A stretch of DNA of 63,951 nucleotides, filler included, from Acidimicrobiia bacterium (GCA_046759765.1; 6 parts of 6 records of this genome joined end to end with filler, not necessarily neighbours in it); one strand, 5' to 3'. Numbered from the whole stretch's first letter, positions 6,042 through 59,441 are shown. Numbers and translations: made by a program. The notes: generated from the letters alone by a model not told the origin.

Positions 6042-6046
6042 GAGGA

Positions 6047-6127: not shown

Positions 6128-6179
6128 TAACTCAAGTGGACTGTTCGCGACGCCGATTATCTGTGAAGCCACTGGTCAA

Positions 6180-11986: not shown

Positions 11987-12086
11987 NNNNNNNNNNNNNN
12001 NNNNNNNNNNNNNNNNNNNNNNNNNNNNNNTTAATTAATTAANNNNNNNNNNNNNNNNNNNNNNNNNNNNNNNNNNNNNNNNNNNN
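11987..12086. other. Artificial contig linker
   Basis: 44 N + TTAATTAATTAA (stop in all six frames) + 44 N. Confidence 0.99.
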
Positions 12087-17695: not shown

Positions 17696-17840
17696 ATCCG
17701 GGCTCCCTAGTCCGTTCGCTCCGATCCCGTTGACACCCGCCGCAGGCGGTGTTTATGTTATCGCCGCGGCGCGGTACCGAACGGCGGGCTATTCTGCAAT
17801 GGATTGTGCTCACCTGAATCTGGACCGAGGAGGAGGGCCG

Positions 17841-19607: not shown

Positions 19608-19610
19608 AGG

Positions 19611-19680
19611 CGCGCCGGGCCAGACACACGCTCTGCCCCGGCGCGGCAAGGGAGGGCACCGCTGTGCCTGACCGCGCCGG
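19611..19680 (+). promoter_or_regulatory. Intercistronic alternative hairpins between SBP and permease
   Basis: CGCGCCGGG(19611-19)/CCCGGCGCG(19637-45) competes with CCGGCGCGG(19638-46)/CCGCGCCGG(19672-80). Confidence 0.45.
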
Positions 19681-19693
19681 ATAACCTCTCCTT

Positions 19694-23964: not shown

Positions 23965-24064
23965 NNNNNNNNNNNNNNNNNNNNNNNNNNNNNNNNNNNN
24001 NNNNNNNNTTAATTAATTAANNNNNNNNNNNNNNNNNNNNNNNNNNNNNNNNNNNNNNNNNNNN
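23965..24064. other. Artificial contig linker
   Basis: N44-TTAATTAATTAA-N44. Confidence 0.99.
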
Positions 24065-32569: not shown

Positions 32570-32687
32570 GCCGTTCCTCCCAGAATCTGGCAGACAGGCT
32601 CCACACCGCAGTGGCCGATTCATTAGGGTCATCGTGAATCGGCGCGTCATATACGCGCCAGAGCTTTCGCAAAAAGAGGAGAAGCCT

Positions 32688-34025: not shown

Positions 34026-34045
34026 CCGAAACCAACAGCTAACAA

Positions 34046-34073
34046 GAGAGAGGGCCCTCCGGGGCCCTCTCTC
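34046..34073 (+). terminator. Perfect hairpin after the SBP gene
   Basis: GAGAGAGGGCCC-TCCG-GGGCCCTCTCTC, 12-bp stem, no U-tract. Confidence 0.65.
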
Positions 34074-34132
34074 ATCGGGCGAGCCCGGGAGCCGTTTGCT
34101 AGGTTCGCGGGCGGTGGCTGGAAGACGGGCTC

Positions 34133-35311
34133 GTGGGTGACATCGTCGAACGGATCGGCTCGGCGTTGCTGGCCGTACTTGTCGGCTCTGGCTTCGTCCT
34201 GCTGATCTACGTCCTGGGCGATCTGCTGCTGCAACGGGTCTTCTCCGATCGAACCCAGGCCAAGTTGCGACCGTGGCTGTGGGTCGGACCCACGATCATT
34301 CTCCTGGCGGTATTTCTCGTCTATCCCGTGATCGACACGGTGAGGAGGAGTTTCCTAGACGATCGCTCGCAAGAGGGTGTCGGTTTCGAGAACTACGAAT
34401 GGGCCTTCACTTCGCCGGAGATGCTGAACGCCTTCCGCAACAACCTGTTCTGGTTGGTGATATTCACAGTCGGGGTGATTCTGCTGGCGATTGGGATCGC
34501 TGTTCTTGCGGACCGGGTGCGGTATGAGTCGGCGGTCAAGAGCACCGTGTTTCTGCCCATGGCGATCTCGTTTGTAGGCGCCTCGGTGATCTGGAGATTC
34601 GTCTATGAGTTCAGGCCCGAGGGGGCCGCTCAGATCGGCATCGCCAACGCCGTTCTCGTTCCTTTAGCTCAATTCGCTCGGGATGCCGAGACGTTCTTCA
34701 GCACCGCTCGCTGGGTGTTCTTGTTTCTCGGCATCGCCTTTCTCCTGGTGGGCTATGCAGCCGGCCGGCAGGCAGCAGGAAGAGGGCGCGGTTGGACGAT
34801 TGGGGGAGGAGTACTTCTCTTCTTCGCCTTTGGGCTATTCCTCTTCTACGGGTTCGCCACATGGGAGATTCCCGTCGGCTGGCTCGTCAACAAGGCGATC
34901 AACAACTTTGCTCTCATCGGGGTTGGTATCTGGGTCTGGGTCGGCTTCGCCGTTGTGATCCTGTCCGCGGCAATCAAAAATGTGCCGGAGGAGCTCCTCG
35001 AGGCCGCTCGGGTCGACGGAGCCACCGAGTGGACGGTCTTCCGTCGGGTGACCATTCCGATGATCAAGGTGACCATCGCGGTGGTGACCACGACCATGGT
35101 CATCAACGTTCTCAAAGTGTTCGACATCGTTTTCGTGATGACCAACGGGAACTTCGACACCGAAGTGCTGGCCAACCGCATGTACAAGGAGATGTTCAAT
35201 TTCACCAACTTCGGTAGGGGGGCTGCCGTCGCCGTGATCCTTTTCCTCGCCGTCGTGCCGGTGATGGTGTGGAACATTCGCCGCTTCCGTGAGCAGGAGT
35301 TGATCCGATGA
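34133..35311 (+). CDS. Sugar ABC permease (AglF-like)
   Basis: FLPMAISFVGASVIW, EAA loop ELLEAARVDGA, LKVFDIV. Confidence 0.9.
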   Translation: MGDIVERIGSALLAVLVGSGFVLLIYVLGDLLLQRVFSDRTQAKLRPWLWVGPTIILLAVFLVYPVIDTVRRSFLDDRSQEGVGFENYEWAFTSPEMLNAFRNNLFWLVIFTVGVILLAIGIAVLADRVRYESAVKSTVFLPMAISFVGASVIWRFVYEFRPEGAAQIGIANAVLVPLAQFARDAETFFSTARWVFLFLGIAFLLVGYAAGRQAAGRGRGWTIGGGVLLFFAFGLFLFYGFATWEIPVGWLVNKAINNFALIGVGIWVWVGFAVVILSAAIKNVPEELLEAARVDGATEWTVFRRVTIPMIKVTIAVVTTTMVINVLKVFDIVFVMTNGNFDTEVLANRMYKEMFNFTNFGRGAAVAVILFLAVVPVMVWNIRRFREQELIR

Positions 35312-35870: not shown

Positions 35871-35970
35871 NNNNNNNNNNNNNNNNNNNNNNNNNNNNNN
35901 NNNNNNNNNNNNNNTTAATTAATTAANNNNNNNNNNNNNNNNNNNNNNNNNNNNNNNNNNNNNNNNNNNN
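35871..35970. other. Artificial contig linker
   Basis: N44-TTAATTAATTAA-N44. Confidence 0.99.
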
Positions 35971-36075
35971 TCTGTGGACGACCTTCGGAAACGGTACGGC
36001 AGGTCCATCGTGCGACCTGCTTCGTTCGATCCGAGTAGGGAACACTGGTTGACAAGGCTTCCCCGGAGAGACTGA
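35971..36075 (+). CDS. C-terminal tail of a probable DinB/Y-family polymerase
   Basis: Manual translation SVDDLRKRYGRSIVRPASFDP...RD* resembles the D.IR.RFG...V..AS tail of DinB; only 34 codons visible. Confidence 0.5.
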   Translation, partial: SVDDLRKRYGRSIVRPASFDPSREHWLTRLPRRD

Positions 36076-36117
36076 AGCCCCTAGCCAGGCTGCCAACACT
36101 GCGCTAAGAGTTACTCG

Positions 36118-36855
36118 ATGATCTTTGTGCTGATACCTGCTTTCAATGAAGCAGGGCGTCTCAAAGAGCTGTTGCCGGGCATTCCCGACTCGGTCGACGA
36201 CTCGGCGGTACGCACCATCGTCATCAGCGACGGATCAACGGATGGAACGCCGGAGATCGCCGCCGAGTTGGGAGCAGAAGTGATCGCCCTGCCGTCGAAT
36301 CGGGGCAAGGGCGCCGCGCTACGCAAGGGAGCGGCCGCGCTTGAGAACCGCGCCTTGGACTGCGTCGTGCTCATGGATGGAGACGGTCAACACGACCCCA
36401 GCTTCCTCTCCTCCGTCGTCGCACCCGTCCTTTCCGGGGACTACCACGTCGTAGTTGGATCGCGCTATCTCGATGATCCAAAACGAGGTGCGACACCTCG
36501 CAACCGATATCTCGTACGCAGGCTTGTGACCTGGTATCTGCGGCGGCGGCTATCCCAGCCCGTGACCGACCCGTTCTCCGGGTACCGGTGTCTGTCCCAA
36601 TTTGCCTTCGACACCATCAGCCTCCGTGGCAACGAGTACGAGGGAGAGCTCGAGATGCGGTTCGAAGCCGAGATTCATGGCCTCGAGCTCGAAGAGGTCC
36701 CAATACCAAGGGTCTACATGGACAACTTCTCGAAAATGGGTAGCCATGGAGGCCCGCTGGTCGGCCGACTTCGAGCGATTGGGCAGTACGTGCGGACGAT
36801 CGTCCGCAAACGCAGAGAGCTAGCTTCAGCCACACGGTCCGCCGTCGCCGCATGA
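36118..36855 (+). CDS. Glycosyltransferase family 2 (DPM1-like)
   Basis: IPAFNEA, SDGSTDGT, NRGKGAA, MDGDGQHDP, VVGSRY, DPFSGYR. Confidence 0.92.
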   Translation: MIFVLIPAFNEAGRLKELLPGIPDSVDDSAVRTIVISDGSTDGTPEIAAELGAEVIALPSNRGKGAALRKGAAALENRALDCVVLMDGDGQHDPSFLSSVVAPVLSGDYHVVVGSRYLDDPKRGATPRNRYLVRRLVTWYLRRRLSQPVTDPFSGYRCLSQFAFDTISLRGNEYEGELEMRFEAEIHGLELEEVPIPRVYMDNFSKMGSHGGPLVGRLRAIGQYVRTIVRKRRELASATRSAVAA

Positions 36856-37568
36856 GGAGTCGGGTGTCAGAGGAGCAGGAAGCCAAGCTGCTCGTCGAGT
36901 TCGAGGAGCTCGTCGCCACTGACCAGCTCCCTCGCGAAGGCGAAGGCTTCATGGACCGGGTGTCCCAGATGGTCGACGGTTTCCTCGGCAGCGGACGGTT
37001 CACGGTGGCGGAGGATCCGTTCCGGGGCCGCGACAGGGAGCTGGCGGAGAGCTCTCATCTCTTCTATGTCATGTTCTGGCGCATGTTCGACCAAACGCCG
37101 GCCGCTCTCATGCAGGACTTTGCCATCAAGCTCCGCCGGATCCTGGCGGCCAAGGTCTTCCGGAGCGTCGGAGTCGATCCCGTGTTCCACCACAAAGTGC
37201 TCTTCAGCTCCGGCCGCAACATCTCCATCGGGAACGGCGTATTCGTGAACCGGTACGTGATGCTCGATGACCGGGCGCCGATCGAAATCGGCGACCACAC
37301 GATGATTGCCGCCGGCGTGATCATCGAGACTCACAGGCACGTGATCGACGACTTCTCTCAACCGATGCCGCTGGGTGGCAGAACGACCGAGCCCGTAAAG
37401 ATCGGTAGCAACTGTCTCATTGGCTACAACGCCGTGATCACAGCAGGTACGACAATCGGCGACAGAGCCGTTGTTGCTTCAAACGCGGTAGTGACCCACG
37501 ACGTCGGGGATCGACAGGCTGTTGGAGGAGTACCGGCCCGCCTCATCAAGGTCATCGAGCCAAGGTGA
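36852..37568 (+). CDS. Hexapeptide-repeat acyltransferase
   Basis: ISIGNGVFVN, IEIGDHTMIAAGV, VKIGSNCLIG, VGGVPARLIK. Confidence 0.88.
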   Translation: MRSRVSEEQEAKLLVEFEELVATDQLPREGEGFMDRVSQMVDGFLGSGRFTVAEDPFRGRDRELAESSHLFYVMFWRMFDQTPAALMQDFAIKLRRILAAKVFRSVGVDPVFHHKVLFSSGRNISIGNGVFVNRYVMLDDRAPIEIGDHTMIAAGVIIETHRHVIDDFSQPMPLGGRTTEPVKIGSNCLIGYNAVITAGTTIGDRAVVASNAVVTHDVGDRQAVGGVPARLIKVIEPR

Positions 37569-37613
37569 CCTTGATCTCGGGCGCTTGACGAGCTCGGGTA
37601 CCCTCCCTTCGCA

Positions 37614-38492
37614 GTGCGCACTCCCCTCTCGAAACTGGCTGCTGTCACAGCAGTCGCTACCTATTTGCTGATCGTTCTGGGGGCCGTGGTGCGGGCCACG
37701 GGCTCAGGTCTCGGCTGCCCCGACTGGCCCACCTGTCACGGCCGCTGGATTCCTCCCTTCGAACGGGAAGCCCTGATTGAGTACTCCCACCGGAGCTTGG
37801 CCGTGATAGTTGGCGCCCTCGTCGTCGCGATATTGATCACAGCTTGGCGATCGCGCCGGCTCGATCGCCGTTCCTGGCAGCTGGCACTTGCCTCGTTTGG
37901 ACTGCTGCTGGTCCAGGCTTGGCTCGGTCGCCAGGTCGTGCTCACCGAGCTCTCGCCAGCCTTGGTGACCGTCCACCTTGGAACTGCAATGACCTTGCTG
38001 GCGATACTGCTGCTAATAGCACTGCCACACGCAAGACCGGAACCCCAACCTCGACTGGCCTGGCGCTATTGGGCGGCCGTCGGAGGCGTCCTGGCCGTGA
38101 TCTTGGCCGGTGCACTCGTTCGCGGAGCGGGAGCCGGTCCCGCCTTCGGAGACTGGCCGCTCATGGATGGCTCCCTCATACCCTCGGGTCTCGACCGTTC
38201 ACTCCGAGCCCTCCACTTCCTGCACCGGACCGTCGCGCTGGTCGTCGGTATCTATCTCGTCTACTTGTTGGTCTTTCTCCGCAGGTCCGAAGGGCTACCA
38301 AGGACACTCGCCTCAGCGATCGGTCTCTATCTACTTCAGGCCTCGATCGGCGCGGCCGCCGTCTGGACGGTTCTGGCGCCGTGGACCGTAGTGAGCCACG
38401 TGGCAGTGGGGTCGCTCACCTGGGCTTTTGCCTTTCTGCTCCCCTTCTCCCGTTCACTGGCGCGAGAACGGTTGGTAAGCACTGAGAGCTGA
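37614..38492 (+). CDS. ctaA: Heme A synthase (COX15/CtaA)
   Basis: GSGLGCPDWPTC, IEYSHR, VTVHLG, HFLHR, multiple TM helices. Confidence 0.9.
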   Translation: MRTPLSKLAAVTAVATYLLIVLGAVVRATGSGLGCPDWPTCHGRWIPPFEREALIEYSHRSLAVIVGALVVAILITAWRSRRLDRRSWQLALASFGLLLVQAWLGRQVVLTELSPALVTVHLGTAMTLLAILLLIALPHARPEPQPRLAWRYWAAVGGVLAVILAGALVRGAGAGPAFGDWPLMDGSLIPSGLDRSLRALHFLHRTVALVVGIYLVYLLVFLRRSEGLPRTLASAIGLYLLQASIGAAAVWTVLAPWTVVSHVAVGSLTWAFAFLLPFSRSLARERLVSTES

Positions 38493-38511
38493 CAGCTGAT
38501 AGCTGACGGCT
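38482..38511. repeat. Heptamer tandem repeat (CTGAnnG)
   Basis: CTGAGAG CTGACAG CTGATAG CTGACGG; overlaps the ctaA stop codon. Confidence 0.65.
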
Positions 38512-38528
38512 TGAGTTCTAGGGTGCCG

Positions 38529-39716
38529 GTGGTGACTCGAATTCTCTATCAAGATGCTGCCCTCGCCGACGGGCGCTCGGACACCCTGCGACTCGGCGTG
38601 AGTGTTACGGTCGAGGACGGCCGCATCATCGCAATCACCGAGGGCCAGGAGGCCGATCCGGGCAGAGACACGAAGGTCATCGACGCCGGCGGTACGACGA
38701 TTGTCCCCGGCATGGTCGACGCCCACAGCCATGTGACCCTGTCCGGAGGCTCGCATTGGATCGACCGCGGTCTGGACGAAACCGAGGAACTACTAGGGGT
38801 TGCCGAGCACAACGCCGAGCTCCTGAACCAGGCGGGAGTTCGGTGGGCACGTGATGTCGGAGCCCCCCGAAGGCTATTCAACGGGCGAGAACGAGCTCTG
38901 AGCCTGGAGGTACGCGAGCGCTGGAGCGAAAGACGCGACCGCCCTTATCTGCGAGCCGCCGGTACATGGCTCACAGTCTCGGACTTTCTGCCGGCCGGAC
39001 TGACGGTCGAGGTCAAGGACGGTGAAGCGCTTCTCGAAGCGGCTCTTCAGCAACTCGAGGAAGGTGCCGACCTCCTCAAGCTCTACCTCGACGGGCCGAA
39101 CTCGGACACTTCGCCGTTCACAGCCGCGGAGGTGAATCGGGTCGTAGAGAACGCCCATGAACGCGACGCCAAGGTCACTGCGCATACCACCAAGCTCGAC
39201 GGAGCCCGTGTCGCTGCCGAGGGACGAGTTGATTCAATCGAACACGGGATGGAGCTCGACCGGGATGTCGCTCGAGATATGGCGACACACGGAATCGCCT
39301 TGGTCTCGACGCTGACGGTGCTCCGGTCTTGGATCACGTTCGGGCAGACGACGACACTTCCGCGGTTTGCCGAAGAAGAAGGGCGCCTGGCCATCCAGGA
39401 GCGGTACGAGCGTGCCCAGAAGAGCGTAAGCATCGCTCACTCGGAGAACGTCGCCATCGCCGCTGGCACCGATTTCGGAGGAGGGTCAGCGCGCGCCAAT
39501 CAGCTCGCATGGGAGGTCGAATCCCTTGTGAAGGCCGGGCTCAAACCCTGGGAAGGATTGGCCGCGGCCACCTGGCGAGGCGGCGAGCTGCTGGGCGAGC
39601 CCGACGCCGGAGTCGTACGAGAAGGAGGTCCGGCGGACTTCTTTCTCGTCCATGGTGATCCCTTGTCGGATCCATCCGCGCTATGGCGAGTCTGGCGGGT
39701 GGCCTGGCTCGATTAA
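38529..39716 (+). CDS. Metal-dependent amidohydrolase (prolidase-like subgroup)
   Basis: PGMVDAHSH, LKLY, VTAHT, SIEHG, AGTDFG, ADFFLVHGDP; start uncertain. Confidence 0.88.
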   Translation: MVTRILYQDAALADGRSDTLRLGVSVTVEDGRIIAITEGQEADPGRDTKVIDAGGTTIVPGMVDAHSHVTLSGGSHWIDRGLDETEELLGVAEHNAELLNQAGVRWARDVGAPRRLFNGRERALSLEVRERWSERRDRPYLRAAGTWLTVSDFLPAGLTVEVKDGEALLEAALQQLEEGADLLKLYLDGPNSDTSPFTAAEVNRVVENAHERDAKVTAHTTKLDGARVAAEGRVDSIEHGMELDRDVARDMATHGIALVSTLTVLRSWITFGQTTTLPRFAEEEGRLAIQERYERAQKSVSIAHSENVAIAAGTDFGGGSARANQLAWEVESLVKAGLKPWEGLAAATWRGGELLGEPDAGVVREGGPADFFLVHGDPLSDPSALWRVWRVAWLD

Positions 39717-39724
39717 CACACCAC

Positions 39725-40483
39725 CTAGGAGTGGGTACCGAAGAATTCGAGTAACCGCTGCCAGGCGTCGTCGCACTCCTCCTGATATTTGTCGTAGGCG
39801 CGGTCGAAGAATGAGTGCGGAGCTCCCGGGTAGGTCACGATCTCATGCGCTACGCCGGCGGTCGAGAGAGCCGCATCGAAGCGCTCGACTTCTTCCGCCG
39901 GAATGGAGGGATCGGCACCGCCCATGAGGCCCAGGATCGGGCATTCCATGTCGTAGACACGCTCAACGACCGGGGCCGCTCCGGGCGGGAAAAGACGGTT
40001 CGGATGGCCGTAGAAGCCGACGGCGCCGGCCAGCCCATGCCCGTTGGCAGCCTGATGCCAGGAGTTGGATCCGCCGAAACAGAAGCCGATCGTGAACACC
40101 TTGCGGGCAGGGTCCTCACGTCTGACGTTCTCCACCGCAGCGGCGACGTCGAGACGGATGCCGTCGAACGTGGTCTGTTCGACGTGATCCATGAATGAGA
40201 AGTCATCGCCTCGCTTGCCGACGCCGGCGGTGCGACCGAAATAATCGAACGCCACCGCGTCGTAGCCCTGAGCGGCGAGCTGAGCTGCCAGTTCCTCATA
40301 GAACGGGTAGAGGCCTCTGACGTCCGGCAACACCACGACCGCGGACCCGGCCTCATTGTCGCCGGTCGCCCCCATCGCGGCGAAGGTGTTTCCGTCGGCT
40401 GCCGATAACACAAGGTCCTCCCGGAAGACAGAGCCCCCCGAGACCGGAGGCACGGGCGGGAGCGCGTCGTGGTCGAAACACAT
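39725..40483 (-). CDS. Dienelactone hydrolase family protein
   Basis: PDVRGL, GFCFGG, GGADPSI, YPGAPHSFFD. Confidence 0.92.
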   Translation of the reverse strand: MCFDHDALPPVPPVSGGSVFREDLVLSAADGNTFAAMGATGDNEAGSAVVVLPDVRGLYPFYEELAAQLAAQGYDAVAFDYFGRTAGVGKRGDDFSFMDHVEQTTFDGIRLDVAAAVENVRREDPARKVFTIGFCFGGSNSWHQAANGHGLAGAVGFYGHPNRLFPPGAAPVVERVYDMECPILGLMGGADPSIPAEEVERFDAALSTAGVAHEIVTYPGAPHSFFDRAYDKYQEECDDAWQRLLEFFGTHS

Positions 40484-40512
40484 GGGGTAGGTCTCGGCTA
40501 GCTCCGGGCACC

Positions 40513-41289
40513 TTACTGGCGGGGGGAGGCTCCGGCCGAGAAGTTGGGCCGAAAGTCCGAAATGAAGTCGGCGGGTATTCGGATCGGACGGTAGGTCTCG
40601 ATATCGACCCAGACGTACTGGCTCCGGAACCGAGCGACGAGCTTGCCCCCGGCTGAGATGAGGTAGTGGCGGATGGCCATGACCCGACGCATATCCGATG
40701 CCCAGGTTCGTATCTCAAGCTCGTCTCCCAGCGCCATCGGCTCTCCGTAGGCGATCTGGTGGCGACGAAGGATCATGGCGAATCCCGCCGCCGTGCACCG
40801 CTCCATCGGCCAGCCATAGGCCGCGCAGAGATCGACCCCGCAGTCCTCTGCGAACGCCGACAGAGTCGCGGGAGAGACCTGCGCCTGCTCGTCGACATCG
40901 CGCCACTCCACTGGGCGGGTCTGGATGAAGACCGCTTCCGGGGCATCGGGAGGATCTGGTATTCGGTCCGATGGATCCCGGTGCGATCCCGGCGTGGCCC
41001 ACAGGGCACGGGCCCGGGCAACGAGATCGGCGTCCCGGTGGAATTCGTAGGCTCGGCGGAGAGGCTCGTCAGTATCAGTGAGTGCAGTGACCGTGACCTC
41101 CTCGCCAAAGGCCAGTGGCTCGACGAATTCGATGTCGGTCGTGCGGAGCCGAGGATCGCCGTTAGGGCGCAGGCCGGCTTCGAACTCGGCTTCTTCCAAG
41201 TAGCGGAGATAGGTGGTGTTGTTCACATGTCCGTAGGCGTCGCACTCATAGCGACGAATGCGAAAGGTACGAGTGATCGGTGAAACCAT
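40513..41289 (-). CDS. Tandem hotdog acyl-CoA/ACP thioesterase
   Basis: RRYECDAYGHVNNTTYLRYLEEA then a second degenerate hotdog VEWRDVDEQAQVSP. Confidence 0.85.
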   Translation of the reverse strand: MVSPITRTFRIRRYECDAYGHVNNTTYLRYLEEAEFEAGLRPNGDPRLRTTDIEFVEPLAFGEEVTVTALTDTDEPLRRAYEFHRDADLVARARALWATPGSHRDPSDRIPDPPDAPEAVFIQTRPVEWRDVDEQAQVSPATLSAFAEDCGVDLCAAYGWPMERCTAAGFAMILRRHQIAYGEPMALGDELEIRTWASDMRRVMAIRHYLISAGGKLVARFRSQYVWVDIETYRPIRIPADFISDFRPNFSAGASPRQ

Positions 41290-41539
41290 GCGGATCGCTC
41301 CAGCGAAGCTAACCCATCAACAACCGCGCTGACACCGCGCGAACATTGACCTTGGATCGACCACGCATCGTGGTGACAGGATGCTTATAGTTAAGAAGGA
41401 CCCACTGGTCATCTTTGCCCTACCGAACAGTGGGTTGCTGCCGAACCGTCCCAACGCTAGTCCTGGGGCGGTTCGCGCCCACGGATTCCTTCCGCCTGGC
41501 CGGGTCGCCCGATGGGCCGACTGATAGCGTTCTGAATCT

Positions 41540-44500
41540 ATGGACGAGGAGAACAAGGCGCCAGAGAGCGACGCCACTTTCCGCGACGAACGGAAGGTCG
41601 TCACCGCGCTGTTCGCCGATGTGGCAGGTTCTACCGCTCTCGGAGCTCAACTCGACCCGGAGGAGTTCCGACTGATCATCGGCGATGCCGTGGATCGGAT
41701 GATTCGGGCTGTCGAGCTGTACGGGGGAACGGTCAAGGAGATCGCCGGCGACGGCCTACTCGTGTTGTTCGGAGCACCCGTAGTGCACGAGGACGACCCC
41801 GAGCGGTCCATCCACGCCGCCTTGGCGATAACCACGGCGATCGAGCGATACGCGAGAGAGGTAGAAGAGGGCTGGGGAATCAAGGGATTCTCAGTGCGGG
41901 TCGGCATATGTACGGGCGCTGCCGTTCTGGGAACCGTTGGCGACGGCGCGGCAGCCGACTACACGGCTTACGGGGACTCCGTGAACACCGCCGCCCGCCT
42001 TCAGGGACACGCCGAGCCGGGCTCGATCCTCGTTGACCGCGCCAGCCAGCTTCTCGCCGAGCCGCTCTTCTCCTGGGGATCAGCGCAGGAGCTCGACCTA
42101 AAAGGAAAAGAAGGGCCGGTTACCGCCTATGCGGTCCGCGGAACCGTGGTCTCAGCGGAGGCAGCGGGACCGCCACTCTTGCACAGCAAGTTGATCGGCC
42201 GGGACTCCGAGTACGAGACGCTGACGGAAGTAGCCGAGTCGCTGGCGGCCGGGAGAGGAAGCATCCTCTTCCTGACGGGCGAGGCCGGCATCGGCAAGAG
42301 CAGGCTTCTCGATGAGCTCCGTCGGCTGGTGGAGTCTCACCCATCCGAGGTCGGACCCGCCCTGTGGCTCGAGGGCAACGCCGCCTCCTATGGAGAGGCA
42401 ACTCCGTACTGGCCGTTTCGCGACCTGATCCGACGTTGGCTGGGTGTGGCTCAGGACGAAGGAGACCTGCGAGTCCGGGTCGCGCTTCGGCGAGAGGTCG
42501 AGCGTCTCTTCGAGGACCGGGCGGTGGAGGTTTATCCGTACCTGGCCTCCATGTTGGCGCTAGGTGTCGAGCCGGAAGCGGCGGAGTGGATAGTGGGCCT
42601 CAGCCCGGAGTCGCTGCAGTACCGCACCTTCGAAGTAATAGGACAGCTGATCGCCCAACTGGCCGACGATCGGCCGGTGGTCGTGGGAGTCGAAGACCTC
42701 CACTGGGCAGATCCGACGTCCGTTCAGCTCCTGGAAACGCTGATGCCGGCCAGCGAAAGCCTGCCGATCCTGGTGGCGGTCACCGCGCGAATGGAGCCCG
42801 ACCATCAGTCCTGGGATCTGAGGGCCGCCATGGTGAGAGAGTTTCCTCACACGACCACCGAGCTGTCGCTCGAGACTCTTCCGGCCGAAGCCAACCGCAG
42901 ACTGCTGCGTGCTCTGGTGGGGGAGGTGCTTCCGGGCGACCTGGAACGCTCTGTGCTCGAGACTGCGGAAGGGAACCCGTTCTTCCTGGAGGAACTCGTC
43001 AGAACGTTGGTCGACGAGGGCGCACTGACCGAGTCCCCCGATGGCTGGGCATTCGACCACGCCGTCGACGTCGAGCTACCTGCCACTGTGGAAAGAGTCA
43101 TCCTCGCTCGAATCGACCGGCTGGACCCTCGCACCCACGACGTCCTGCGGAGCGCCTCGGTGCTCGGCCGCGAGTTCACCATGCCGCTCCTGGAGGCGGT
43201 TACCCAGGCAAGTCAGGAGGACTTGGATCAAGCCGCCCACCAGTTGCAGCGCCTCGACTTTGTCCGCCAAACCCGGCGCTGGCCGGATCCCGAATATCAG
43301 TTCAAGCACGCCCTGATCCAGGAAGCGGCCTACCGGACCCTTCTCAAAGCAGACCGGGTGCTCCGGCACGAGCTGGTGGGTCGGTTTCTCGAGGAGACCT
43401 ACTCCGACAACCAAGATGAGGTCCTGGGACTGCTGGCGTATCACTGGGCCGCGGCCGAGGTCGAAGACAAGGCGATTCGCTACTTGACTAAGGCCGGTGA
43501 CCAGGCGCGGCTCGAGTACGCGCTCGACGAGGCGATCGATCAGTACGTCGAGTTGCTGGAGCTACTCGAGCGCCGCGGCGACGATCAGCAGGCGGCACTG
43601 ATCCTGTTCAAGCTGGCGCTGGCCCTTCACATGTCGTTGAGGTTCGCCGAGGCTAACCGCGCCTACCAACGAGCCTTCGAATACTGGAAGGACTCCGGGG
43701 TATCCCCCACCCCACCCTCGGTCACCTTGAGGGTGGGAGGAGGTCGGCCGATGTATGGGCCGGACTTCCGCTCTCACTTTCTGGGTGACATCCAGCTGAA
43801 CATGTCGCTGCATGATCGGCTGGTGGAAGCCTGGCCGGAGCGCACGATCATTCCATCTCTGGCGGAGCGATGGACCATCTCGGACGACGGCCTTCGGTAC
43901 ACATTCCATCTCCGCGAAGGGCTGACCTGGTCGGATGGGGAGCCTCTCACCGCCCATGACGTCGAGTTTGGCATCAAGCAAATCCTCGATCCGGTCGAGC
44001 CCGGCATGTCGGTGGCGATCTACTTCGTCCTGGAGGACGCACAGGACTACCACCTGGGCCGGCACCAGGATCCGGACCGGGTTGGTGTAAGGGCACTGGA
44101 CGACCGTACGGTTGAGTTCCGGCTCGTCGCTCCTGCTCCTTACTTCATGTGGGTCGTCAACCGGCCCGACGGAGGACCACAACCCCGCCACCTCTTCGAG
44201 TCCGACCAGGCAGAAAAGGTCGGAACGGAAGTTGTGTCCGGTCCTTTCCGGCTAATCGAACGGGACGACGACCATCTGGTGATCGAAAGGCGAGACGACT
44301 ACACCAGATCGCGGCCCGGTAACGTTGCCCGGGTCGAGTGGACCTTCGGGTCGGAGGAGCTGGTACCCGCCTTCCAAACCGCGGACTTGGAGCTCTTGAC
44401 GTCGCGGTTCGAACATTTCGCCGCTCTCTACGAGGCCGTTCCCGACCGCGTCCGGACGTGGCCGCCTGCGTGGGGCATGTACCTTACTTTCGACCATTCC

Positions 44501-45187
44501 CACGTGGTTACCGGAAGCGCGGACTTCCGCCGGGCGTTGGCGCACGCCATCGATAGAGAGGCGCTGCGTGAGCTAGCTCCACCGACCTGGATCATCGCAA
44601 CGGGTGGACTCGTACCGCCGCCGCTTCAGGGCCACACTCCCGACATCTCTCTCCGCTTCGAGCCGGACCTGGCTCGTGAGTCCCTGGCAAACTCGGGCGT
44701 CGACATCGGCCCGCTGGTGATCCCGGTATTACCCGGACCGTCCGATGAGCCGGTCATCAGACGAGTCAGTGAGGACTGGCGGGAGGTCCTGGACCTGGAC
44801 GTGACGACCCGCGAGCTGACGATGGATGAGTACGCCAGCGGAGAGGCCGACAAGTACCTAGTGCAAACAGGCGGTTGGTATCCGGGCTATCCCGATCCTG
44901 AGTACTTCCTGCGACTGCTGCTGCACTCGGAGAGCGCAACGAACTTCGGCGGCTTTGCCGACGAGCATTTCGACCAGCTCATCGAGCAGGCTCGCCAGGA
45001 ACGGAACGATCGCAAACGCCTCGAGCTATATCACGAAGCCGATCGCTATGCGATTGCCGATCAGGTAGCGGTGATACCCCTTTGGTACGCGGCCAACGAG
45101 ACGTTCATCCAGCCCGGAGTGGAGGGCTGGTGGGAGTTCGGGAAGAGCTGGCCCAACTACGGCGACCTGATCGTCGACAACGAGTAA
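41540..45187 (+). CDS. Class III nucleotide cyclase - STAND AAA ATPase - helical linker - SBP family 5 fusion protein
   Basis: FADVAGST/AGDG/GDSVNTAAR cyclase; GEAGIGKS, VEDLHWAD, GNPFFLEEL, FKHALIQEAAY STAND; PSLAERWTISDDGLRYTFHLREGLTWSDGEPLTAHDV and FRRALAHAIDRE SBP5. Confidence 0.9.
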   Translation: MDEENKAPESDATFRDERKVVTALFADVAGSTALGAQLDPEEFRLIIGDAVDRMIRAVELYGGTVKEIAGDGLLVLFGAPVVHEDDPERSIHAALAITTAIERYAREVEEGWGIKGFSVRVGICTGAAVLGTVGDGAAADYTAYGDSVNTAARLQGHAEPGSILVDRASQLLAEPLFSWGSAQELDLKGKEGPVTAYAVRGTVVSAEAAGPPLLHSKLIGRDSEYETLTEVAESLAAGRGSILFLTGEAGIGKSRLLDELRRLVESHPSEVGPALWLEGNAASYGEATPYWPFRDLIRRWLGVAQDEGDLRVRVALRREVERLFEDRAVEVYPYLASMLALGVEPEAAEWIVGLSPESLQYRTFEVIGQLIAQLADDRPVVVGVEDLHWADPTSVQLLETLMPASESLPILVAVTARMEPDHQSWDLRAAMVREFPHTTTELSLETLPAEANRRLLRALVGEVLPGDLERSVLETAEGNPFFLEELVRTLVDEGALTESPDGWAFDHAVDVELPATVERVILARIDRLDPRTHDVLRSASVLGREFTMPLLEAVTQASQEDLDQAAHQLQRLDFVRQTRRWPDPEYQFKHALIQEAAYRTLLKADRVLRHELVGRFLEETYSDNQDEVLGLLAYHWAAAEVEDKAIRYLTKAGDQARLEYALDEAIDQYVELLELLERRGDDQQAALILFKLALALHMSLRFAEANRAYQRAFEYWKDSGVSPTPPSVTLRVGGGRPMYGPDFRSHFLGDIQLNMSLHDRLVEAWPERTIIPSLAERWTISDDGLRYTFHLREGLTWSDGEPLTAHDVEFGIKQILDPVEPGMSVAIYFVLEDAQDYHLGRHQDPDRVGVRALDDRTVEFRLVAPAPYFMWVVNRPDGGPQPRHLFESDQAEKVGTEVVSGPFRLIERDDDHLVIERRDDYTRSRPGNVARVEWTFGSEELVPAFQTADLELLTSRFEHFAALYEAVPDRVRTWPPAWGMYLTFDHSHVVTGSADFRRALAHAIDREALRELAPPTWIIATGGLVPPPLQGHTPDISLRFEPDLARESLANSGVDIGPLVIPVLPGPSDEPVIRRVSEDWREVLDLDVTTRELTMDEYASGEADKYLVQTGGWYPGYPDPEYFLRLLLHSESATNFGGFADEHFDQLIEQARQERNDRKRLELYHEADRYAIADQVAVIPLWYAANETFIQPGVEGWWEFGKSWPNYGDLIVDNE

Positions 45188-45203
45188 GGGCGACGCGCAA
45201 GCT

Positions 45204-45642
45204 ATGAGTGCACCGGCGGAAAACGGGTTGCTCACCGCAGAACCCGAGGGAGCACCGACCGTTCTGTTTCTTCACGGTGCAGGCGCCAATGCCGCCATGT
45301 GGCTTCCCCAATTCGAGCGGCTCCAATCTGACTTTCGCCTGCCAGCGCCTTAGTTGCCGGGAGGCCATGATCAACCGCGGGCTGTCGATTAAAGCGGCGG
45401 GCCAGGTGTTGCGTCGCTTACCGGGCCGCGACTTGCCGCGGATGCTGGCTTCGTATCCGGGCCCGACGCTGATTCTCAACGGCGAGCGAGACCGCCAGAA
45501 CATCAAGTCCGCACCCCAGATGGCCGCGGCTGCTCAACATGCCTCGATCCGGGTGATAGAGGACGCCGGCCACGCGTGCAGCCTTTCTCAGCCTGACATC
45601 TTCACCGGGGCTGTTCGGGTGTTCGCAAACTCAATCGTGTGA
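45204..45642 (+). pseudogene. Alpha/beta hydrolase pseudogene
   Basis: ATG 45204 ...VLFLHGAGANAAMWLPQF...LPAP* (TAG 45351); C-terminal PTLILNGERD...IEDAGH in another frame; GxSxG region absent. Confidence 0.75.
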
Positions 45643-45692
45643 AGCAGGAACGAGCTGGTCTCGGACAGCTCCAACTCAGCCTGGCAATCCAG

Positions 45693-46169
45693 CTAGATGA
45701 TCGGCAGGATTGCGGAAAGCACGATGTAGCCGATCCAGCCTATAACCGATGCTCCGATTGCCTTGCCGAGGGACACATCGAGGCCTTCTCGTACGGCGAC
45801 GATCGTGGCCACTAACGCCCAGATCGCGCCAATCCATCCGAGGAACGGGATGATCCCGAGTACCCGAGGGGCTTGGGCGAAGCCGGTGACACGGAGCATC
45901 TCGCCGTAATCCGCGGTGCCGTCAAACAACCGGGTCCCAACCCAATACGTAAGTGCGGCCCAAACAAGCCAACCGAGCAGCGCCGCAATCGTCCCGAGGA
46001 CGACGAGCCGGAAGAATGATCGATCGAGCACGAACCAGAGACCCAGTGCCGAGAGAACACTGGCGACGACGACTACCGCCACAGCCTGAGGTGTGTACGT
46101 GTCGTCGTGCTCGACCGTGTCGTAGAACTCTTTGTCGAGCCGGGCGGCTCGAATCATGTTCTGGATCAT
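45693..46169 (-). CDS. Yip1-like membrane protein
   Basis: MIRAARLD..FY..VEHD, several TM helices, LRVTGFAQAP, AVREGLD. Confidence 0.75.
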   Translation of the reverse strand: MIQNMIRAARLDKEFYDTVEHDDTYTPQAVAVVVVASVLSALGLWFVLDRSFFRLVVLGTIAALLGWLVWAALTYWVGTRLFDGTADYGEMLRVTGFAQAPRVLGIIPFLGWIGAIWALVATIVAVREGLDVSLGKAIGASVIGWIGYIVLSAILPII

Positions 46170-46233
46170 TGCCTACCTCCGTGCCGCCCGACGGACAGGC
46201 TATTTCATGACGTGCCTCGGGCGTCGGAAATCG

Positions 46234-46596
46234 CTAATAGACGAGCACTCTGTCGGCCGCAAAGGTCAGCTGGACCAGCTTGGCAGGCATCGCGAACGAG
46301 GCATTCTTCGGCGCGATATCAGCTTCGGTGACTCCTCTCCCCTGGGCTGACATACCGGAGACGAAGATCGGCACCTCTGCATCGACTAAGGCGGGCAGGG
46401 TGTCTTCCAGCGCCCCGGTTCCGATTCCCTTGAGGGAGGACATGACCTCATCCTTGAGCAGATAGGCCGCGTCCCCCGCGAAGAACATGGTGACGTCATG
46501 GCCATCATCCACGGCCGCCTTGGCGACTAGGCAGGCCAGGGCGGCCCGAGTCGGCGCCTCCGGCCCGTGGGTTACGTGAACCAATAGTGAGCCCAA
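46234..46596 (-). CDS. DsrE-family protein
   Basis: LVHVTHGPE, HDVTMFFAGDA, VSGMSAQGRGV, ADRVLVY. Confidence 0.82.
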   Translation of the reverse strand: MGSLLVHVTHGPEAPTRAALACLVAKAAVDDGHDVTMFFAGDAAYLLKDEVMSSLKGIGTGALEDTLPALVDAEVPIFVSGMSAQGRGVTEADIAPKNASFAMPAKLVQLTFAADRVLVY

Positions 46597-46695
46597 ATCT
46601 CTCCCCTCTCGATATGCCGACGCTACCTCCCGGGACCGCGGCGCGTTCGGCAGGGATCAGTTAAGTTTCGGTAGTAGCTACCGAGGGGAAGGACC

Positions 46696-47651
46696 ATGAC
46701 GGAGCTGACCAAGATCACGCTGGACGAGTCGGAGATCCCGACCAGCTGGTACAACATCATCCCGGACCTGCCGGCGCCGCCCCCTCCGATCCTGGCACCG
46801 GACACCCTGGAGCCCGTCGGGCCAGACGCTTTCGCTCCGATCTTCCCCATGGCGCTGATCATGCAGGAGGTCTCCACCGACAGCTACATCGAGATTCCCG
46901 GAGAGGTCCTCGACGTATACCGCATGTGGCGTCCCTCGCCCCTCTTCCGAGCCCATCGGCTGGAGAAGGCACTCGGGACCAAAGCCCGCATCTACTACAA
47001 GTACGAGGGTGGAAGCGCACCGGGATCGCACAAGCCCAACACTGCCGTGGCGCAAGCCTTCTACAACAAGCAGGAGGGCGCTCAGAAGATCGCCACGGAG
47101 ACCGGTGCCGGTCAGTGGGGCAGCGCCCTCGCCTTTGCCTGCTCGGTCTTCGACCTCGAGTGCGAGGTATGGATGGTCCGGGCCTCGTATGACCAGAAGC
47201 CTTATCGGAAATCGATGATGGAGGTCTGGGGAGCCACGGTCCACCCGAGCCCCTCCGACCTCACGGAAACGGGCCGCAAGCTGCTGGCCGAGGACCCGAG
47301 CAACACAGGAAGCCTCGGTATTGCCATCAGCGAGGCCGTGGAAACTGCTGCCCAGAGCGAAACAACCAAGTATTCACTGGGAAGCGTGCTGAACCACGTA
47401 CTCATGCACCAGACGGTCATCGGCGAAGAGGCTCTGGTGCAGCTGCAAAACATTGGTGAGACTCCCGACCTGCTGCTGGGATGCACTGGCGGCGGGTCGA
47501 ACTTCGGCGGCCTCGCCTTCCCGTTCCTGCGAGAGAAGATGGCCGGCAACATGAACCCAACGATTCGCTGCGTCGAGCCGGCGGCGTGTCCGTCATTCAC
47601 CAAGGGTGAGTACCGGTACGACTTCGGCGACACGGCGCCGTTCATCCCGCT
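46696..47651 (+). CDS. trpB2: TrpB2-type PLP enzyme, 3'-truncated
   Basis: [51 protein letters not shown]. Confidence 0.92.
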
Positions 47652-47751
47652 NNNNNNNNNNNNNNNNNNNNNNNNNNNNNNNNNNNNNNNNNNNNTTAAT
47701 TAATTAANNNNNNNNNNNNNNNNNNNNNNNNNNNNNNNNNNNNNNNNNNNN
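47652..47751. other. Artificial contig linker
   Basis: N44-TTAATTAATTAA-N44. Confidence 0.99.
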
Positions 47752-48350
47752 TGGAGCGGGTAGTCGACGCTGTCGGACAGCAGCCGATAGGCCGCGACCA
47801 TCGACGGCACGTGCGAGTGCTTTACCGAGATCTTTATGTCGTGAAAGTCGACCTCTTCCAGGTAGCGAATCTCTTTGAGCGCCGATTCCACCAACGCCTC
47901 CGGAGTCGGCTTACCGAAACGCGTCAATAGCTCACGGTCCAGAGAACCCGCATTGACACCCACCCTGATGGGCACGCCGCGATCCTTGGCCTCGCGGGCG
48001 ACTGCCTTGATCTGCTCTTCCTTTCGGATGTTCCCCGGATTGAGCCGAAGAGCTTGGACACCCGCTTCGAGCGCCCCTAGCGCCAGCCGGTATTGGAAGT
48101 GGATGTCGGCAACGATGGGTACGGGGGACCGCGGCACGATCTCAGCCAGCGCCTCGGCGGCCTCCGGTTCGTTACAGGTGATTCGAACAATGTCCGCTCC
48201 GGCGCCGCGGAGCGCGTACACCTGGGCCAGCGTTCCATCGACGTCGGAGGTCTTTGTCGTCGTCATCGACTGAACGGAGACCGGGGCGCCGCCCCCGACT
48301 ACGACATCTCCCACCGCAACCGCGCGGGTCGTTCTTCGAGTGATTGCCAT
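47752..48350 (-). CDS. ispG: HMBPP synthase IspG, 3'-truncated
   Basis: VSVQSMTTT, VADIHF, RLNPGNI, IRVGVNAGSL, KISVK. Confidence 0.95.
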
Positions 48351-59341: not shown

Positions 59342-59441
59342 NNNNNNNNNNNNNNNNNNNNNNNNNNNNNNNNNNNNNNNNNNNNTTAATTAATTAANNN
59401 NNNNNNNNNNNNNNNNNNNNNNNNNNNNNNNNNNNNNNNNN
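59342..59441. other. Artificial contig linker
   Basis: N44-TTAATTAATTAA-N44. Confidence 0.99.

Follow-up and report, generated by a model that had tools for sequence, protein, structure and literature searches.

Can a binding domain of the transporter type serve as the sensor of an NLR-like ATPase? The locus described here raises this question: a transporter-type binding domain occupies the place where NLR-like ATPases normally carry their sensor. In the window (the whole 63,951-nucleotide stretch that was analysed), a single unbroken ORF with an ATG start runs on the + strand from 41540 to 45187 (stop codon 45185-45187) and encodes 1215 aa, as claimed in the original prediction. The ORF, its Pfam domains and its full-length homologues describe a putatively soluble cyclase-STAND-TPR-SBP5 protein. 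What had been observed before (the ORF, the Pfam domains, the motifs and their places, no export signal) is confirmed as a whole. Of the interpretation, the layout, the cytoplasmic location and the sensor position stand; peptide binding is not supported for this clade, and the repeats are not fully replaced.

The window is made of six contig pieces linked by 100-nt N/TTAATTAATTAA spacers. The gene lies entirely within the piece 35971-47651, whose 11,681 bp equal the length of the contig on record for this protein, and this piece alone is its true context. No ABC permease or ABC ATPase had been seen next to the gene, and this holds for the real contig, where no transporter gene was found. The Opp-type operon at 17730-23964 and the sugar-type SBP and permease at 32634-35311 are both on different pieces. 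The neighbours on the 11.7-kb contig are unrelated enzymes, and the genomic context gives no functional hint.

The three expected Pfam families (Guanylate_cyc, AAA_16 and SBP_bac_5) all scored far above their cut-offs. Guanylate_cyc covers aa 19-199 (41594..42136, +; E 9e-20, 71.5 bits against a cut-off of 21.9), a class III nucleotide cyclase domain that matches 2w01, CyaB (3r5g) and CyaC (1wc0) in the PDB with E-values of 5.5e-22 to 1.2e-19. The metal-binding residues Asp27 and Asp71 and the transition-state residues Asn149 and Arg153 align to their CyaC/CyaB counterparts. An alignment of 32 family members, with a mean column identity of 71% over the full length, shows no substitution at Asp27, Asp71 or Asn149, and Arg153 is near-invariant. 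Judged from the sequence alone, the intact catalytic residues argue for an active cyclase. The base-specifying pair is Glu67/Thr142, which is non-canonical and differs from the adenine-specifying Lys/Asp (or Lys/Thr) pair; Glu67 lies four residues ahead of the GD motif, and Lys66 misses this register by one residue. The family has Asp67 at the first position with Ala, Gly, Ser or Thr at the second. A pair with Glu first is the guanylate-cyclase pattern (PMC4215837). Because the pair is Glu/Thr instead of Lys/Asp, the product is left between the nucleotides: it could be cAMP or cGMP, and may not be cAMP. The profile for the TOMM kinase/cyclase fusion protein (TIGR03903) reached 249 bits against a cut-off of 705.75, with the match limited to aa 12-684.

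The nucleotide-binding domain of the STAND module (AAA_16, E 4.9e-24) comprises aa 217-412 (42188..42775, +). The motifs named in the original prediction are all in place: Walker A GEAGIGKS at aa 247-254 (42278-42301, +), Walker B VEDLHWAD at aa 384-391 (42689-42712, +) and GNPFFLEE from aa 478. All 32 aligned sequences share G247, E248, G250, G252, K253 and D386, and G478, N479, P480 and F481 of GNPFF (aa 478-482) are likewise invariant. The helical and winged-helix part, assigned by conservation and model fold matches, spans aa 413-620 (42776..43399, +) and includes the FKHALIQE motif, whose His590 is near-invariant. At the sequence level the protein has Walker A and B as well as two further STAND features, a GxP-type motif within the helical domain and, in the winged-helix region, a His that is conserved. 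An AlphaFold model of aa 200-730 (pLDDT 84.4, pTM 0.72) gave as best fold matches Apaf-1 (1z6t, E 4e-8), the STAND-TPR protein 6mfv, CED-4 and MalT (8bob, E 2.4e-7, TMt 0.55). Avs3, NOD2 and plant NLRs were also among the top PDB matches, which ranged from E 4e-8 to 1e-5 with moderate TM-scores of 0.28-0.48 on the query. As modelled, the central module is a STAND with the NBD-helical-winged-helix fold of Apaf-1, CED-4 and MalT. No HTH family was found in the protein with Pfam or NCBIfam, and the LuxR-type C-terminal HTH of MalT/LAL proteins is thus absent. The predicted order of effector, STAND NTPase and C-terminal sensor is borne out by Pfam, the STAND model and its fold matches.

A short TPR-like arm of five paired helices follows at aa 625-715 (43412..43684, +). 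It is seen in both models; TPR_12 matches aa 662-715 under the cut-off (E 0.0039), and a family profile of aa 661-723 matches consensus-TPR proteins (E 2e-7). About 10 residues join the last TPR helix to a complete family-5 (OppA/DppE-like) solute-binding domain at aa ~726-1215 (43715..45184, +). SBP_bac_5 matches aa 769-1133 over profile positions 1-366 of 368 (E 2.4e-54), and the sequence matches in the PDB are DppE (8ay0, 9.5e-39), OppAIV (4gl8) and OppA (1b05). The fold of the SBP part of a near-full model, in which inter-domain placement is uncertain (pTM 0.54), matches OppAIV, DppE and OppA with TMt 0.73-0.76. The earlier view that the SBP had replaced a repeat sensor holds for its position, but the five paired helices were kept; these are predicted to form a docking surface for the SBP. 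Homology and the flytrap fold are those of a family-5 SBP, whereas an export signal and, on the contig, linkage to a permease or ATPase are absent. As anticipated, homologues are named 'ABC transporter substrate-binding protein'.

Complex prediction of aa 225-720 with aa 725-1215 returned scores of 0.87, 0.87 and 0.84 against 0.03 for the best control; the score is the model's own confidence and is built on an alignment that we made. Among solved complexes, 116 of 157 scored this high, as did 2 of 215 mismatched pairs. At least 85% of contacts recur between the runs, with a partner pLDDT of 85-87. Contacts near the cut are trivial, since both chains come from a single polypeptide split in two. 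The predicted interface involves the TPR helices 654-718, residues 330, 350-362 and 396 of the NBD, and segments of the SBP that map onto both of its lobes. Invariant residues are over-represented there (15/35 against 106/461, p 0.0099; 18/38 against 114/453, p 0.0039), in a test that depends on the same alignment that drives the model.

When just the SBP domain was used as the query, a set of 1.84 billion representatives yielded 945 matches at E<=1e-30. Among 36 long representatives drawn from the best 150, 33 combine AAA_16 with a C-terminal SBP_bac_5, and their N-termini carry Guanylate_cyc (15), BTAD (10), Pkinase (3), BTAD plus Pkinase (2), HTH_3 (1) or none of these (2). With purpose-built HMMs, AAA_16 and SBP occur together in 68 of 151 rows. 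A further 71 rows were 'SBP only'; many of them look like fragments of fused proteins because they start inside the STAND or TPR helices, and one alone (P0235) has a signal-peptide-like N-terminus. In a tree of the SBP domain the output labels are interleaved, and well-supported branches force at least 8 changes of the cyclase label. The TPR-SBP region of a BTAD member matches cyclase-, kinase- and BTAD-headed proteins with 58-88% identity. The STAND-SBP5 unit is a reusable chassis, on which cyclase, SARP/BTAD, Ser/Thr kinase and HTH outputs have been swapped repeatedly. This strengthens the earlier claim that SBP5 holds the sensor position, as its nearest relatives sit almost all behind AAA_16 with interchangeable outputs. 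Our literature search found no paper on the cyclase/output-STAND-SBP5 architecture and no description of BTAD- or Pkinase-AAA_16 forms ending in SBP5; the protein is one member of a large and apparently unstudied class of such receptors.

We favour, as reasonably probable, a soluble cytoplasmic STAND switch with an SBP5 flytrap sensor on a short TPR arm and a class III cyclase output. This reading is backed by the domains and folds, the intact catalytic and P-loop residues, the lack of export signals, conservation, and output swapping. Ligand binding, autoinhibition, oligomerisation and cyclase activation are steps that we infer. At rest, the SBP domain and the TPR arm would pack on the nucleotide-binding domain and keep it closed. 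A small intracellular ligand entering the SBP cleft would shift the angle between the lobes. Release of this lock would allow nucleotide exchange and self-association of the STAND module, and the cyclase domains, which need pairing for their active sites, would be brought together to produce a cyclic nucleotide.

Other explanations have to be weighed against this one. A window pieced together from six contigs makes artefacts conceivable in principle, and faulty assembly or gene calling might have fused a cyclase-STAND gene and the gene of a transporter SBP into one ORF. We regard this as practically dismissed. The gene lies within one contig piece and has a flat GC content along its length (0.62-0.66), and the Pfam E-values exclude chance matches. 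At least 120 homologues are listed, and every one of them is full length and carries all three Pfam domains (55-58% identity with the query excluded, 98-100% coverage, 1200-1282 aa). Of 452 genomic relatives found, 80 loci were fetched and 59 have an intact ORF spanning more than 1000 query residues; two Atlas clusters with 74 and 169 members have the full architecture. A misassembly at the STAND/SBP junction or a lack of full-length homologues, named beforehand as what would overturn the prediction, is excluded by these data, and the gene is real and conserved in soil actinobacteria. A second explanation, which we consider very improbable, makes the hydrophobic helix at aa 685-703 (43592..43648, +) a membrane anchor; the receptor would cross the membrane once, N-in/C-out, with its SBP5 outside the cell. 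This helix was examined further because its Kyte-Doolittle mean of 1.65, the highest of any 19-residue window, is borderline and because it sits exactly between STAND and SBP. The highest window reaches up to 1.92 in homologues (median 1.63 in 119 proteins, wherever that window falls). However, Lys691, His697 and Arg701 within the helix are invariant, as is F690, and both AlphaFold models set it in the paired-helix stack (pLDDT above 80 in both, 82-87 in the near-full one) that the TPR profile match covers. With interface residues at 687-718, it is predicted to be a TPR helix buried at the TPR/SBP interface and not a membrane span. Inspection of the sequence showed an acidic N-terminus that resembles neither a signal peptide nor a lipobox; C124 is the single Cys. 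With no export signal and its sole hydrophobic helix assigned to the TPR arm, the protein is probably soluble and cytoplasmic, in line with the original prediction, which had seen no signal peptide, lipobox or convincing TM helix and would have been overturned by one between STAND and SBP. A role in defence, as an anti-phage NLR-like (Avs/bNACHT-type) or Pycsar-like system in which the SBP sees a phage product and the cyclase makes an alarm nucleotide for a killing effector, is improbable. Defence systems commonly include STAND proteins, whose sensors are diverse, the STAND fold matches Avs3 too, and the cyclase matches PADLOC PycC models (best E 7.3e-16). Yet ordinary adenylate/guanylate cyclases match it better (5.5e-22), the PADLOC matches are confined to PycC cyclase models, with none to Avs, to NLRs or to any further STAND defence model, and no cNMP-binding effector domain was found among the Pfam-scanned ORFs of the contig. 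There is no conserved partner gene across the 80 loci: the commonest non-family neighbour cluster occurs at just 9, and the ten commonest, when scanned, contain one with an ABC_tran ATPase and no permease. Across Actinomycetota (76 of the 80 loci) the family is conserved, with 52-60% identity, among ordinary metabolic genes, and the chassis also drives outputs of the SARP and kinase kinds, which are regulatory and not suicidal.

Rather unlikely, but deserving more weight, is a reading in which SBP5 is a degenerate flytrap that acts as a structural lid or as a protein-interaction or oligomerisation surface and senses no small ligand; a partner protein on the TPR arm, the nucleotide state or phosphorylation would then control the switch. 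In the alignment to 1b05, 4gl8 and 8ay0, the position of OppA Asp419 is taken by Gly1116 (codon 44885..44887, +) in the motif GW[YLF]PGYPDPEY, and that of Arg413 by Thr1110. Because these anchoring residues are absent, the cleft might be degenerate. Gly1116 is invariant in 32 family members, and both the Asp and the Arg that anchor the peptide in OppA are lost clade-wide, with Asp/Glu at the Asp419 column in 0 of 10 rows of the query's well-supported clade. Many invariant SBP residues (APAPYF, GGxVPPxLQGHTP, 1155-1165) also sit at the predicted STAND interface, off the recognised ligand positions. Against a mere lid, the SBP is complete and conserved as strongly as the catalytic domains. Among the 58 rows outside the clade, an acidic anchor persists in 54 (51 Asp, 3 Glu; 57 of the 58 are STAND-fused), which argues that the ancestral module binds a ligand. 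Asp419 of S. enterica OppA binds the N-terminal amine of the peptide, lactococcal OppA binds peptides without using such an Asp (PMC5736914), and SBP_bac_5 members take many non-peptide ligands (PMC8050422, table). For the query's clade, a peptide with a free N-terminus, held as in OppA, is an unlikely ligand. An OppA/DppA-type peptide-binding domain had been proposed; the complete SBP5 fold was found, but not the peptide anchor.

The STAND switch with a flytrap sensor, our preferred reading, can be compared with several known systems. OppA, DppE, MppA and OppAIV, the family-5 SBPs of ABC importers, share the fold and full-length homology of the sensor (E to 9.5e-39, TMt to 0.76). They are exported, have permease partners and use a conserved Asp to hold the N-terminal amine of the peptide, whereas the SBP5 here is predicted to be cytoplasmic and is fused, with no transporter on the contig and Gly at the anchor. 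SgrR-type regulators, which combine an HTH with a cytoplasmic SBP5 domain, are a precedent for an intracellular SBP5 one-component sensor, but have no STAND between sensor and output, and their output is DNA binding instead of a cyclase. MalT, the E. coli maltose regulator, is also a STAND ATPase. Its self-association is controlled by a C-terminal sensor to which a small metabolite of the cytoplasm binds; this sensor is a superhelical repeat and the output of MalT a LuxR DNA-binding domain, in contrast to the flytrap and the lack of an HTH here. Cyclase-AAA_16-TPR proteins likewise start with a class III cyclase and go on to an AAA_16 STAND. Paralogues of this kind adjoin family members at two loci (L031 and L064) and align over aa 16-720 with 29-32% identity, but they continue into a long C-terminal TPR array, to which a LuxR HTH may be added, where this protein has five helices and a 490-aa SBP5. 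The group includes the mycobacterial Rv0386-type cyclase-ATPase-HTH proteins, and Rv0386 also has been reported with non-canonical base-specifying residues. SARP/AfsR-type (BTAD-NB-ARC-TPR) regulators and STAND-linked Ser/Thr kinases follow the same effector-STAND-sensor logic; the C-terminal part of classical AfsR consists of TPR repeats (PMC1262709), and BTAD-AAA_16-SBP5 and Pkinase-AAA_16-SBP5 proteins have the TPR-SBP module in common with the cyclase versions. Apaf-1, CED-4, animal and plant NLRs and bacterial Avs proteins share the NBD-helical-winged-helix fold and the three-part layout, but their sensors are WD40, LRR or TPR-like repeats and their outputs death or immune effectors.

The query protein is encoded by a single ORF on the + strand (41540-45187, 1215 aa). 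Pfam identifies Guanylate_cyc (aa 19-199, E 9e-20), AAA_16 (aa 217-412, E 4.9e-24) and SBP_bac_5 (aa 769-1133, E 2.4e-54, 366 of 368 profile positions), together with a weak TPR_12 match (aa 662-715, E 0.0039) that lies under the cut-off. NCBIfam matches aa 750-1197 to OppA-type binding proteins, and aa 12-684 bear a partial, sub-threshold likeness to its TOMM kinase/cyclase fusion protein model. The ORF call and Pfam confirmed the ORF, the domains and the motifs at the residues named in the original prediction.

The window consists of six contig pieces split by five 100-nt spacers (11987-12086, 23965-24064, 35871-35970, 47652-47751 and 59342-59441), each made of an N-run, TTAATTAATTAA and a second N-run, which rules out reading it as contiguous DNA. 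The query gene lies wholly inside the piece 35971-47651, whose 11,681 bp equal the recorded length of this protein's contig. The rpsB-tsf-pyrH-cdsA-dxr-rseP-ispG block and the Opp operon were rejected as gene context, since they are on other contig pieces. The 'truncated ispG' (47752-48350) was likewise rejected as a real truncation and is a contig end; a PLP enzyme (46696-47651) is cut by a contig end, and the GC dip at 47500-48000 is a spacer. Besides this truncated gene, the piece carries a GT2 glycosyltransferase, a hexapeptide transferase, CtaA, an amidohydrolase, a dienelactone hydrolase and a thioesterase divergent from the query gene, a small ORF 21 nt downstream of it, Yip1 and DsrE. 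The piece lacks any transporter gene, and the claim that no ABC permease or ATPase genes adjoin the query gene holds there. The small ORF (45208-45642, +, 144 aa) starts 21 nt past the stop codon of the query gene and matches only the C-terminal third of Abhydrolase_6 (150-214 of 217, E 1.6e-5); it could be either what is left of a gene or a genuine small one. A canonical Opp/Dpp-type importer is found on another contig piece (17730-23964), with a 625-aa SBP_bac_5 protein, a permease and two oligo_HPY ATPases; the last ATPase extends into the spacer. The SBP5 protein of this importer (17730-19604) was rejected as the source of the fused domain, with 41% identity over 71 residues only. The first contig piece holds a chemosensory-type signalling cluster unrelated to the query gene (2905-7046), in which a CheA-like hybrid kinase (Hpt-HATPase-CheW-receiver) precedes a receiver-GAF protein and a histidine kinase.

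A word-seeded protein search gave 2855 matches among 8000 candidates. The 120 homologues listed from these matches are all 1200-1282 aa long and all carry the same three Pfam domains; those other than the query share 55-58% identity over 98-100% of its length. Full-length homologues of the same architecture thus exist, GC is flat across the gene, and the misassembly at the STAND/SBP junction considered in the original prediction is not the case. The listed homologues are mostly named 'ABC-type oligopeptide transport system substrate-binding subunit/class 3 adenylate cyclase' or 'ABC transporter substrate-binding protein', the latter being the automatic name that had been anticipated. Two SBP-specific peptide patterns, run against 185,579 species genomes, picked out 545 candidate stretches, and 452 of these were confirmed as relatives. 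The best 80 of these 452 loci (52-60% identity) are from Actinomycetota (76) or unclassified (4), with 11 labelled Thermoleophilia and 9 Gaiellales. The ORF is intact over more than 1000 query residues in 59 of the 80; the remaining loci show contig-end cuts or frameshift splits. At five loci from long-read-style assemblies (L004, L013, L044, L067 and L075), the family gene appears as two or three adjacent same-strand ORFs, most likely through frameshift errors and not as real splits. Mean column identity is 71% over the whole length of 32 aligned members. The probability that the three-domain ORF is an artefact is negligible.

The SBP domain alone (aa 717-1215) was searched against 1.84 billion representatives, giving 38,188 matches at E<=1e-3, of which 945 reach E<=1e-30. 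Among the best 150 matches, many are proteins of 1000-1650 aa with the match at the C-terminus. When Pfam was run on 36 long proteins from these 150, picked by length (1024-1627 aa), 33 showed AAA_16 with a C-terminal SBP_bac_5, an arrangement we call the STAND-SBP5 chassis. The N-termini of the 33 are Guanylate_cyc (15), BTAD (10), Pkinase (3), BTAD plus Pkinase (2), HTH_3 (1) or unassigned (2); the other three long proteins are tandem SBPs without an ATPase. Purpose-built HMMs from the AAA_16, SBP and output regions, applied to the best 150 and the query, found the ATPase together with the SBP domain in 68 of 151 proteins. A further 71 of the 151 were 'SBP only'. Many of the latter look like fragments of larger proteins because they start within recognisable STAND or TPR sequence, and a signal-peptide-like start was seen in just one of them (P0235). 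Three giant proteins, P0121 (2843 aa), P0133 (2704 aa) and P0200 (3461 aa), have three or four SBP5 matches; the purpose-built HMMs resolve P0121 into BTAD-AAA_16 and, after it, four SBP5 domains in tandem.

A maximum-likelihood tree (IQ-TREE quick, LG+G4) was built from 67 fused SBP domains and the standalone P0235. The output labels are interleaved on this tree, and branches with SH-aLRT >=95 force at least eight changes of the 'cyc' label. The labels came from the purpose-built HMMs and agree with Pfam on the scanned proteins except for weaker matches such as the protein P0178. The TPR-SBP region of a BTAD-headed member found matches of 58-88% identity headed by BTAD, Pkinase, Guanylate_cyc or nothing, and the few organism names shown among them are Anaerolineae, Chloroflexi, Promineifilaceae and Fidelibacterota. 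In the ESM Atlas, two cyclase/AAA_16/SBP_bac_5 clusters have 74 and 169 members from Actinomycetota, and an AAA_16/SBP_bac_5/BTAD cluster has 69 from Chloroflexota. Repeated swapping of the output domain on a constant switch and C-terminal module is a classical sensor signature, and this repeated exchange is the best support for the prediction that SBP5 holds the sensor's place. At two loci, tandem zinc-ribbon-cyclase-AAA_16-TPR_12 paralogues (L031:3459-7328, L031:7341-10733 and L064:10573-14301, − strand) directly adjoin an SBP5-ended family member, which suggests local duplication and sensor exchange inside one locus.

The STAND part of the query contains Walker A and B motifs, G478-N479-P480-F481 of GNPFF and a near-invariant His590 (FKHALIQE). 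The fold search with a near-full model was swamped by SBP matches, and a separate STAND-only model (aa 200-730; pLDDT 84.4, pTM 0.72) was therefore used. Its best fold matches are Apaf-1, the archaeal STAND-TPR protein 6mfv, CED-4, MalT, Avs3, NOD2 and plant NLRs. By sequence, a profile of the STAND part against the PDB found no solved STAND relative, returning consensus TPRs and weak AAA+ P-loop matches only. PADLOC yields generic PycC cyclase matches only and no conserved partner gene recurs at the 80 loci; an anti-phage system of the NLR-like or Pycsar-like kind is very unlikely. A membrane-anchored receptor is less probable still. The N-terminus of the protein is acidic and has no lipobox, and the sole candidate membrane span (aa 685-703, Kyte-Doolittle 1.65) sits exactly between the STAND and SBP parts, where a transmembrane helix would have spoken against the original prediction. 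This helix, however, has invariant Lys691, His697 and Arg701, and it lies within a run of paired helices with pLDDT >80 in both AlphaFold models. The family profile of aa 661-723 matches consensus TPR proteins (E 2e-7), and in a complex prediction the SBP domain docks onto residues 687-718. From these four results, aa 685-703 read as a TPR helix and not as a membrane span, with a small residual doubt.

In the cyclase domain, alignment to CyaC, CyaB and 2w01 shows both metal-binding Asp residues (27 and 71) and the Asn149/Arg153 pair. Where adenylate cyclases have Lys, the query has Glu67 and the family Asp, with Lys66 one residue off register; at the second specificity site the query has Thr142, and family members have Ala, Gly, Ser or Thr. 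The specificity pairs are Lys/Asp in adenylate cyclases and Glu/Cys, or Glu/Gly in Cya2, in guanylate cyclases, and Thr at the second site occurs in both (PMC4215837). With the catalytic residues present and the base-specifying positions non-canonical, the domain looks competent and may make either cAMP or cGMP.

By sequence and fold, the best solved relatives of the SBP domain are DppE, OppAIV, OppA and MppA (TMt 0.73-0.76). Counted along the 1b05 alignment, Arg413 of OppA corresponds to Thr1110 and Asp419 to Gly1116, which is invariant across the 32 aligned members. An Asp of the Asp419 type forms a hydrogen bond with the peptide's N-terminal amine, and the binding mode of lactococcal OppA is a different one (PMC5736914). 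Across 68 aligned rows this column holds Asp in 51, Glu in 3, Gly in 7 and other residues in 7. The query's clade (SH-aLRT 100; 8/10 cyclase-headed) has Gly, Ala or His and no acidic residue in all 10 rows, while its sister row P0154 keeps the Asp. Judged from this distribution, the chassis overall looks like an OppA-kind peptide binder, and the query's clade appears to have changed its ligand mode. The description 'peptide-binding' in the original prediction may thus not apply to the query's clade, where the acidic anchor is lost. The SBP domain could also be degenerate and non-sensing, which we consider unlikely. The ligands of SBP_bac_5 proteins listed in an SBP-signalling review include dipeptides, oligopeptides, murein tripeptide, AI-2, chitin and other oligosaccharides, and nickel (PMC8050422), and a non-peptide or N-blocked ligand is therefore plausible for the query's clade.

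The neighbourhood is too sparse to serve as a ligand clue. Clustering of all flank ORFs revealed no neighbour recurring in more than 9 of the 80 loci; the commonest clusters are NlpC/P60, a 463-aa ORF, a ribosomal-S4-domain ORF, a fatty-acyl reductase-HAD protein and a class A PBP. The most frequent neighbours, an NlpC/P60 peptidoglycan hydrolase (9/80) and a class A PBP with PASTA domains (7/80), as at L004:12643-13731 (−) and L011:14597-17188 (−) and in their clusters, are a weak hint to cell-wall peptides as the ligand source and may equally reflect subclade synteny.

Contact between sensor and switch was modeled as a complex of aa 225-720 with aa 725-1215, halves of one polypeptide, using an alignment made for this analysis. 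The scores were 0.87, 0.87 and 0.84, with the best control at 0.03; 116 of 157 solved complexes reach the score mark, as do 2 of 215 mismatched pairs. At least 85% of contacts are shared between the runs, and the partners have a pLDDT of 85-87. Memorisation of a solved complex by the model is an unlikely source of the score, because the sequence of the STAND part matched no PDB chain. The predicted interface is formed by TPR helices 654-718 and NBD residues 330, 350-362 and 396 on the STAND side, and by segments 767-784, 865-870, 923-924, 1021-1035 and 1155-1165 of the SBP domain, which span both lobes, going by the OppA alignment and the domain limits of OppA. Invariant residues are enriched at the interface (15/35 versus 106/461, p 0.0099; 18/38 versus 114/453, p 0.0039), conservation and complex prediction not being independent of each other. 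The prediction supports an SBP-STAND contact. By analogy with MalT, Apaf-1 and NLRs, for which such switching is established, we infer a clamp-release mechanism. At rest, the SBP domain and the TPR arm would clamp the NBD. Lobe movement on ligand binding would break the clamp, nucleotide exchange and then self-association would follow, and the cyclase domains would pair to make cNMP.

The cyclase-STAND-SBP5 architecture is already catalogued by automatic annotation. In the literature outside subscription journals and InterPro architecture tables, we found no description of it and no experiment on it, and the literature search found no paper on SBP_bac_5 together with Guanylate_cyc or AAA_16. 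The abstract of the SBP-signalling review places SBPs in the extracytosolic space, and its text does not contain 'fused' or 'AAA' (PMC8050422). Passages of an eLife paper on conflict systems mention only TM-anchored extracellular PBP domains (PMC7159879).

We rate the query protein as a STAND signalling ATPase with an unusual sensor, and the size and modularity of its class give it an interest beyond a single gene. STAND/NLR proteins play central parts in immunity, cell death and bacterial regulation, and the step from signal binding to ATPase opening is hard to study; the ligands of repeat sensors are mostly large or unknown. A STAND switch driven by a flytrap would be unusually tractable, since the closure of flytraps is well known and can readily be assayed or re-engineered. 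Probably hundreds to thousands of 'ABC transporter substrate-binding protein' entries are cytoplasmic receptors controlling cNMP synthesis, SARP-type antibiotic regulators and Ser/Thr kinases. Such misfiled receptors matter for genome annotation, for finding triggers of silent biosynthetic clusters and for building modular biosensors. Our broadest reading is a tentative one, with the balance of probability well against it: STAND-SBP5 proteins of Actinomycetota and Chloroflexota may form a large class of cytoplasmic receptors that has gone unrecognised. These would read intracellular or imported oligopeptide-like signals through a transporter-derived flytrap and pass them via an NLR-like ATPase switch to the attached output (cyclic nucleotide, SARP activation or Ser/Thr phosphorylation). 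The query's clade, with the amine-anchoring Asp lost, would be retuned to an N-blocked peptide (e.g. a muropeptide) or a non-peptide ligand and might make cGMP rather than cAMP. The class would then be a functional parallel to the RRNPP peptide receptors of Firmicutes.
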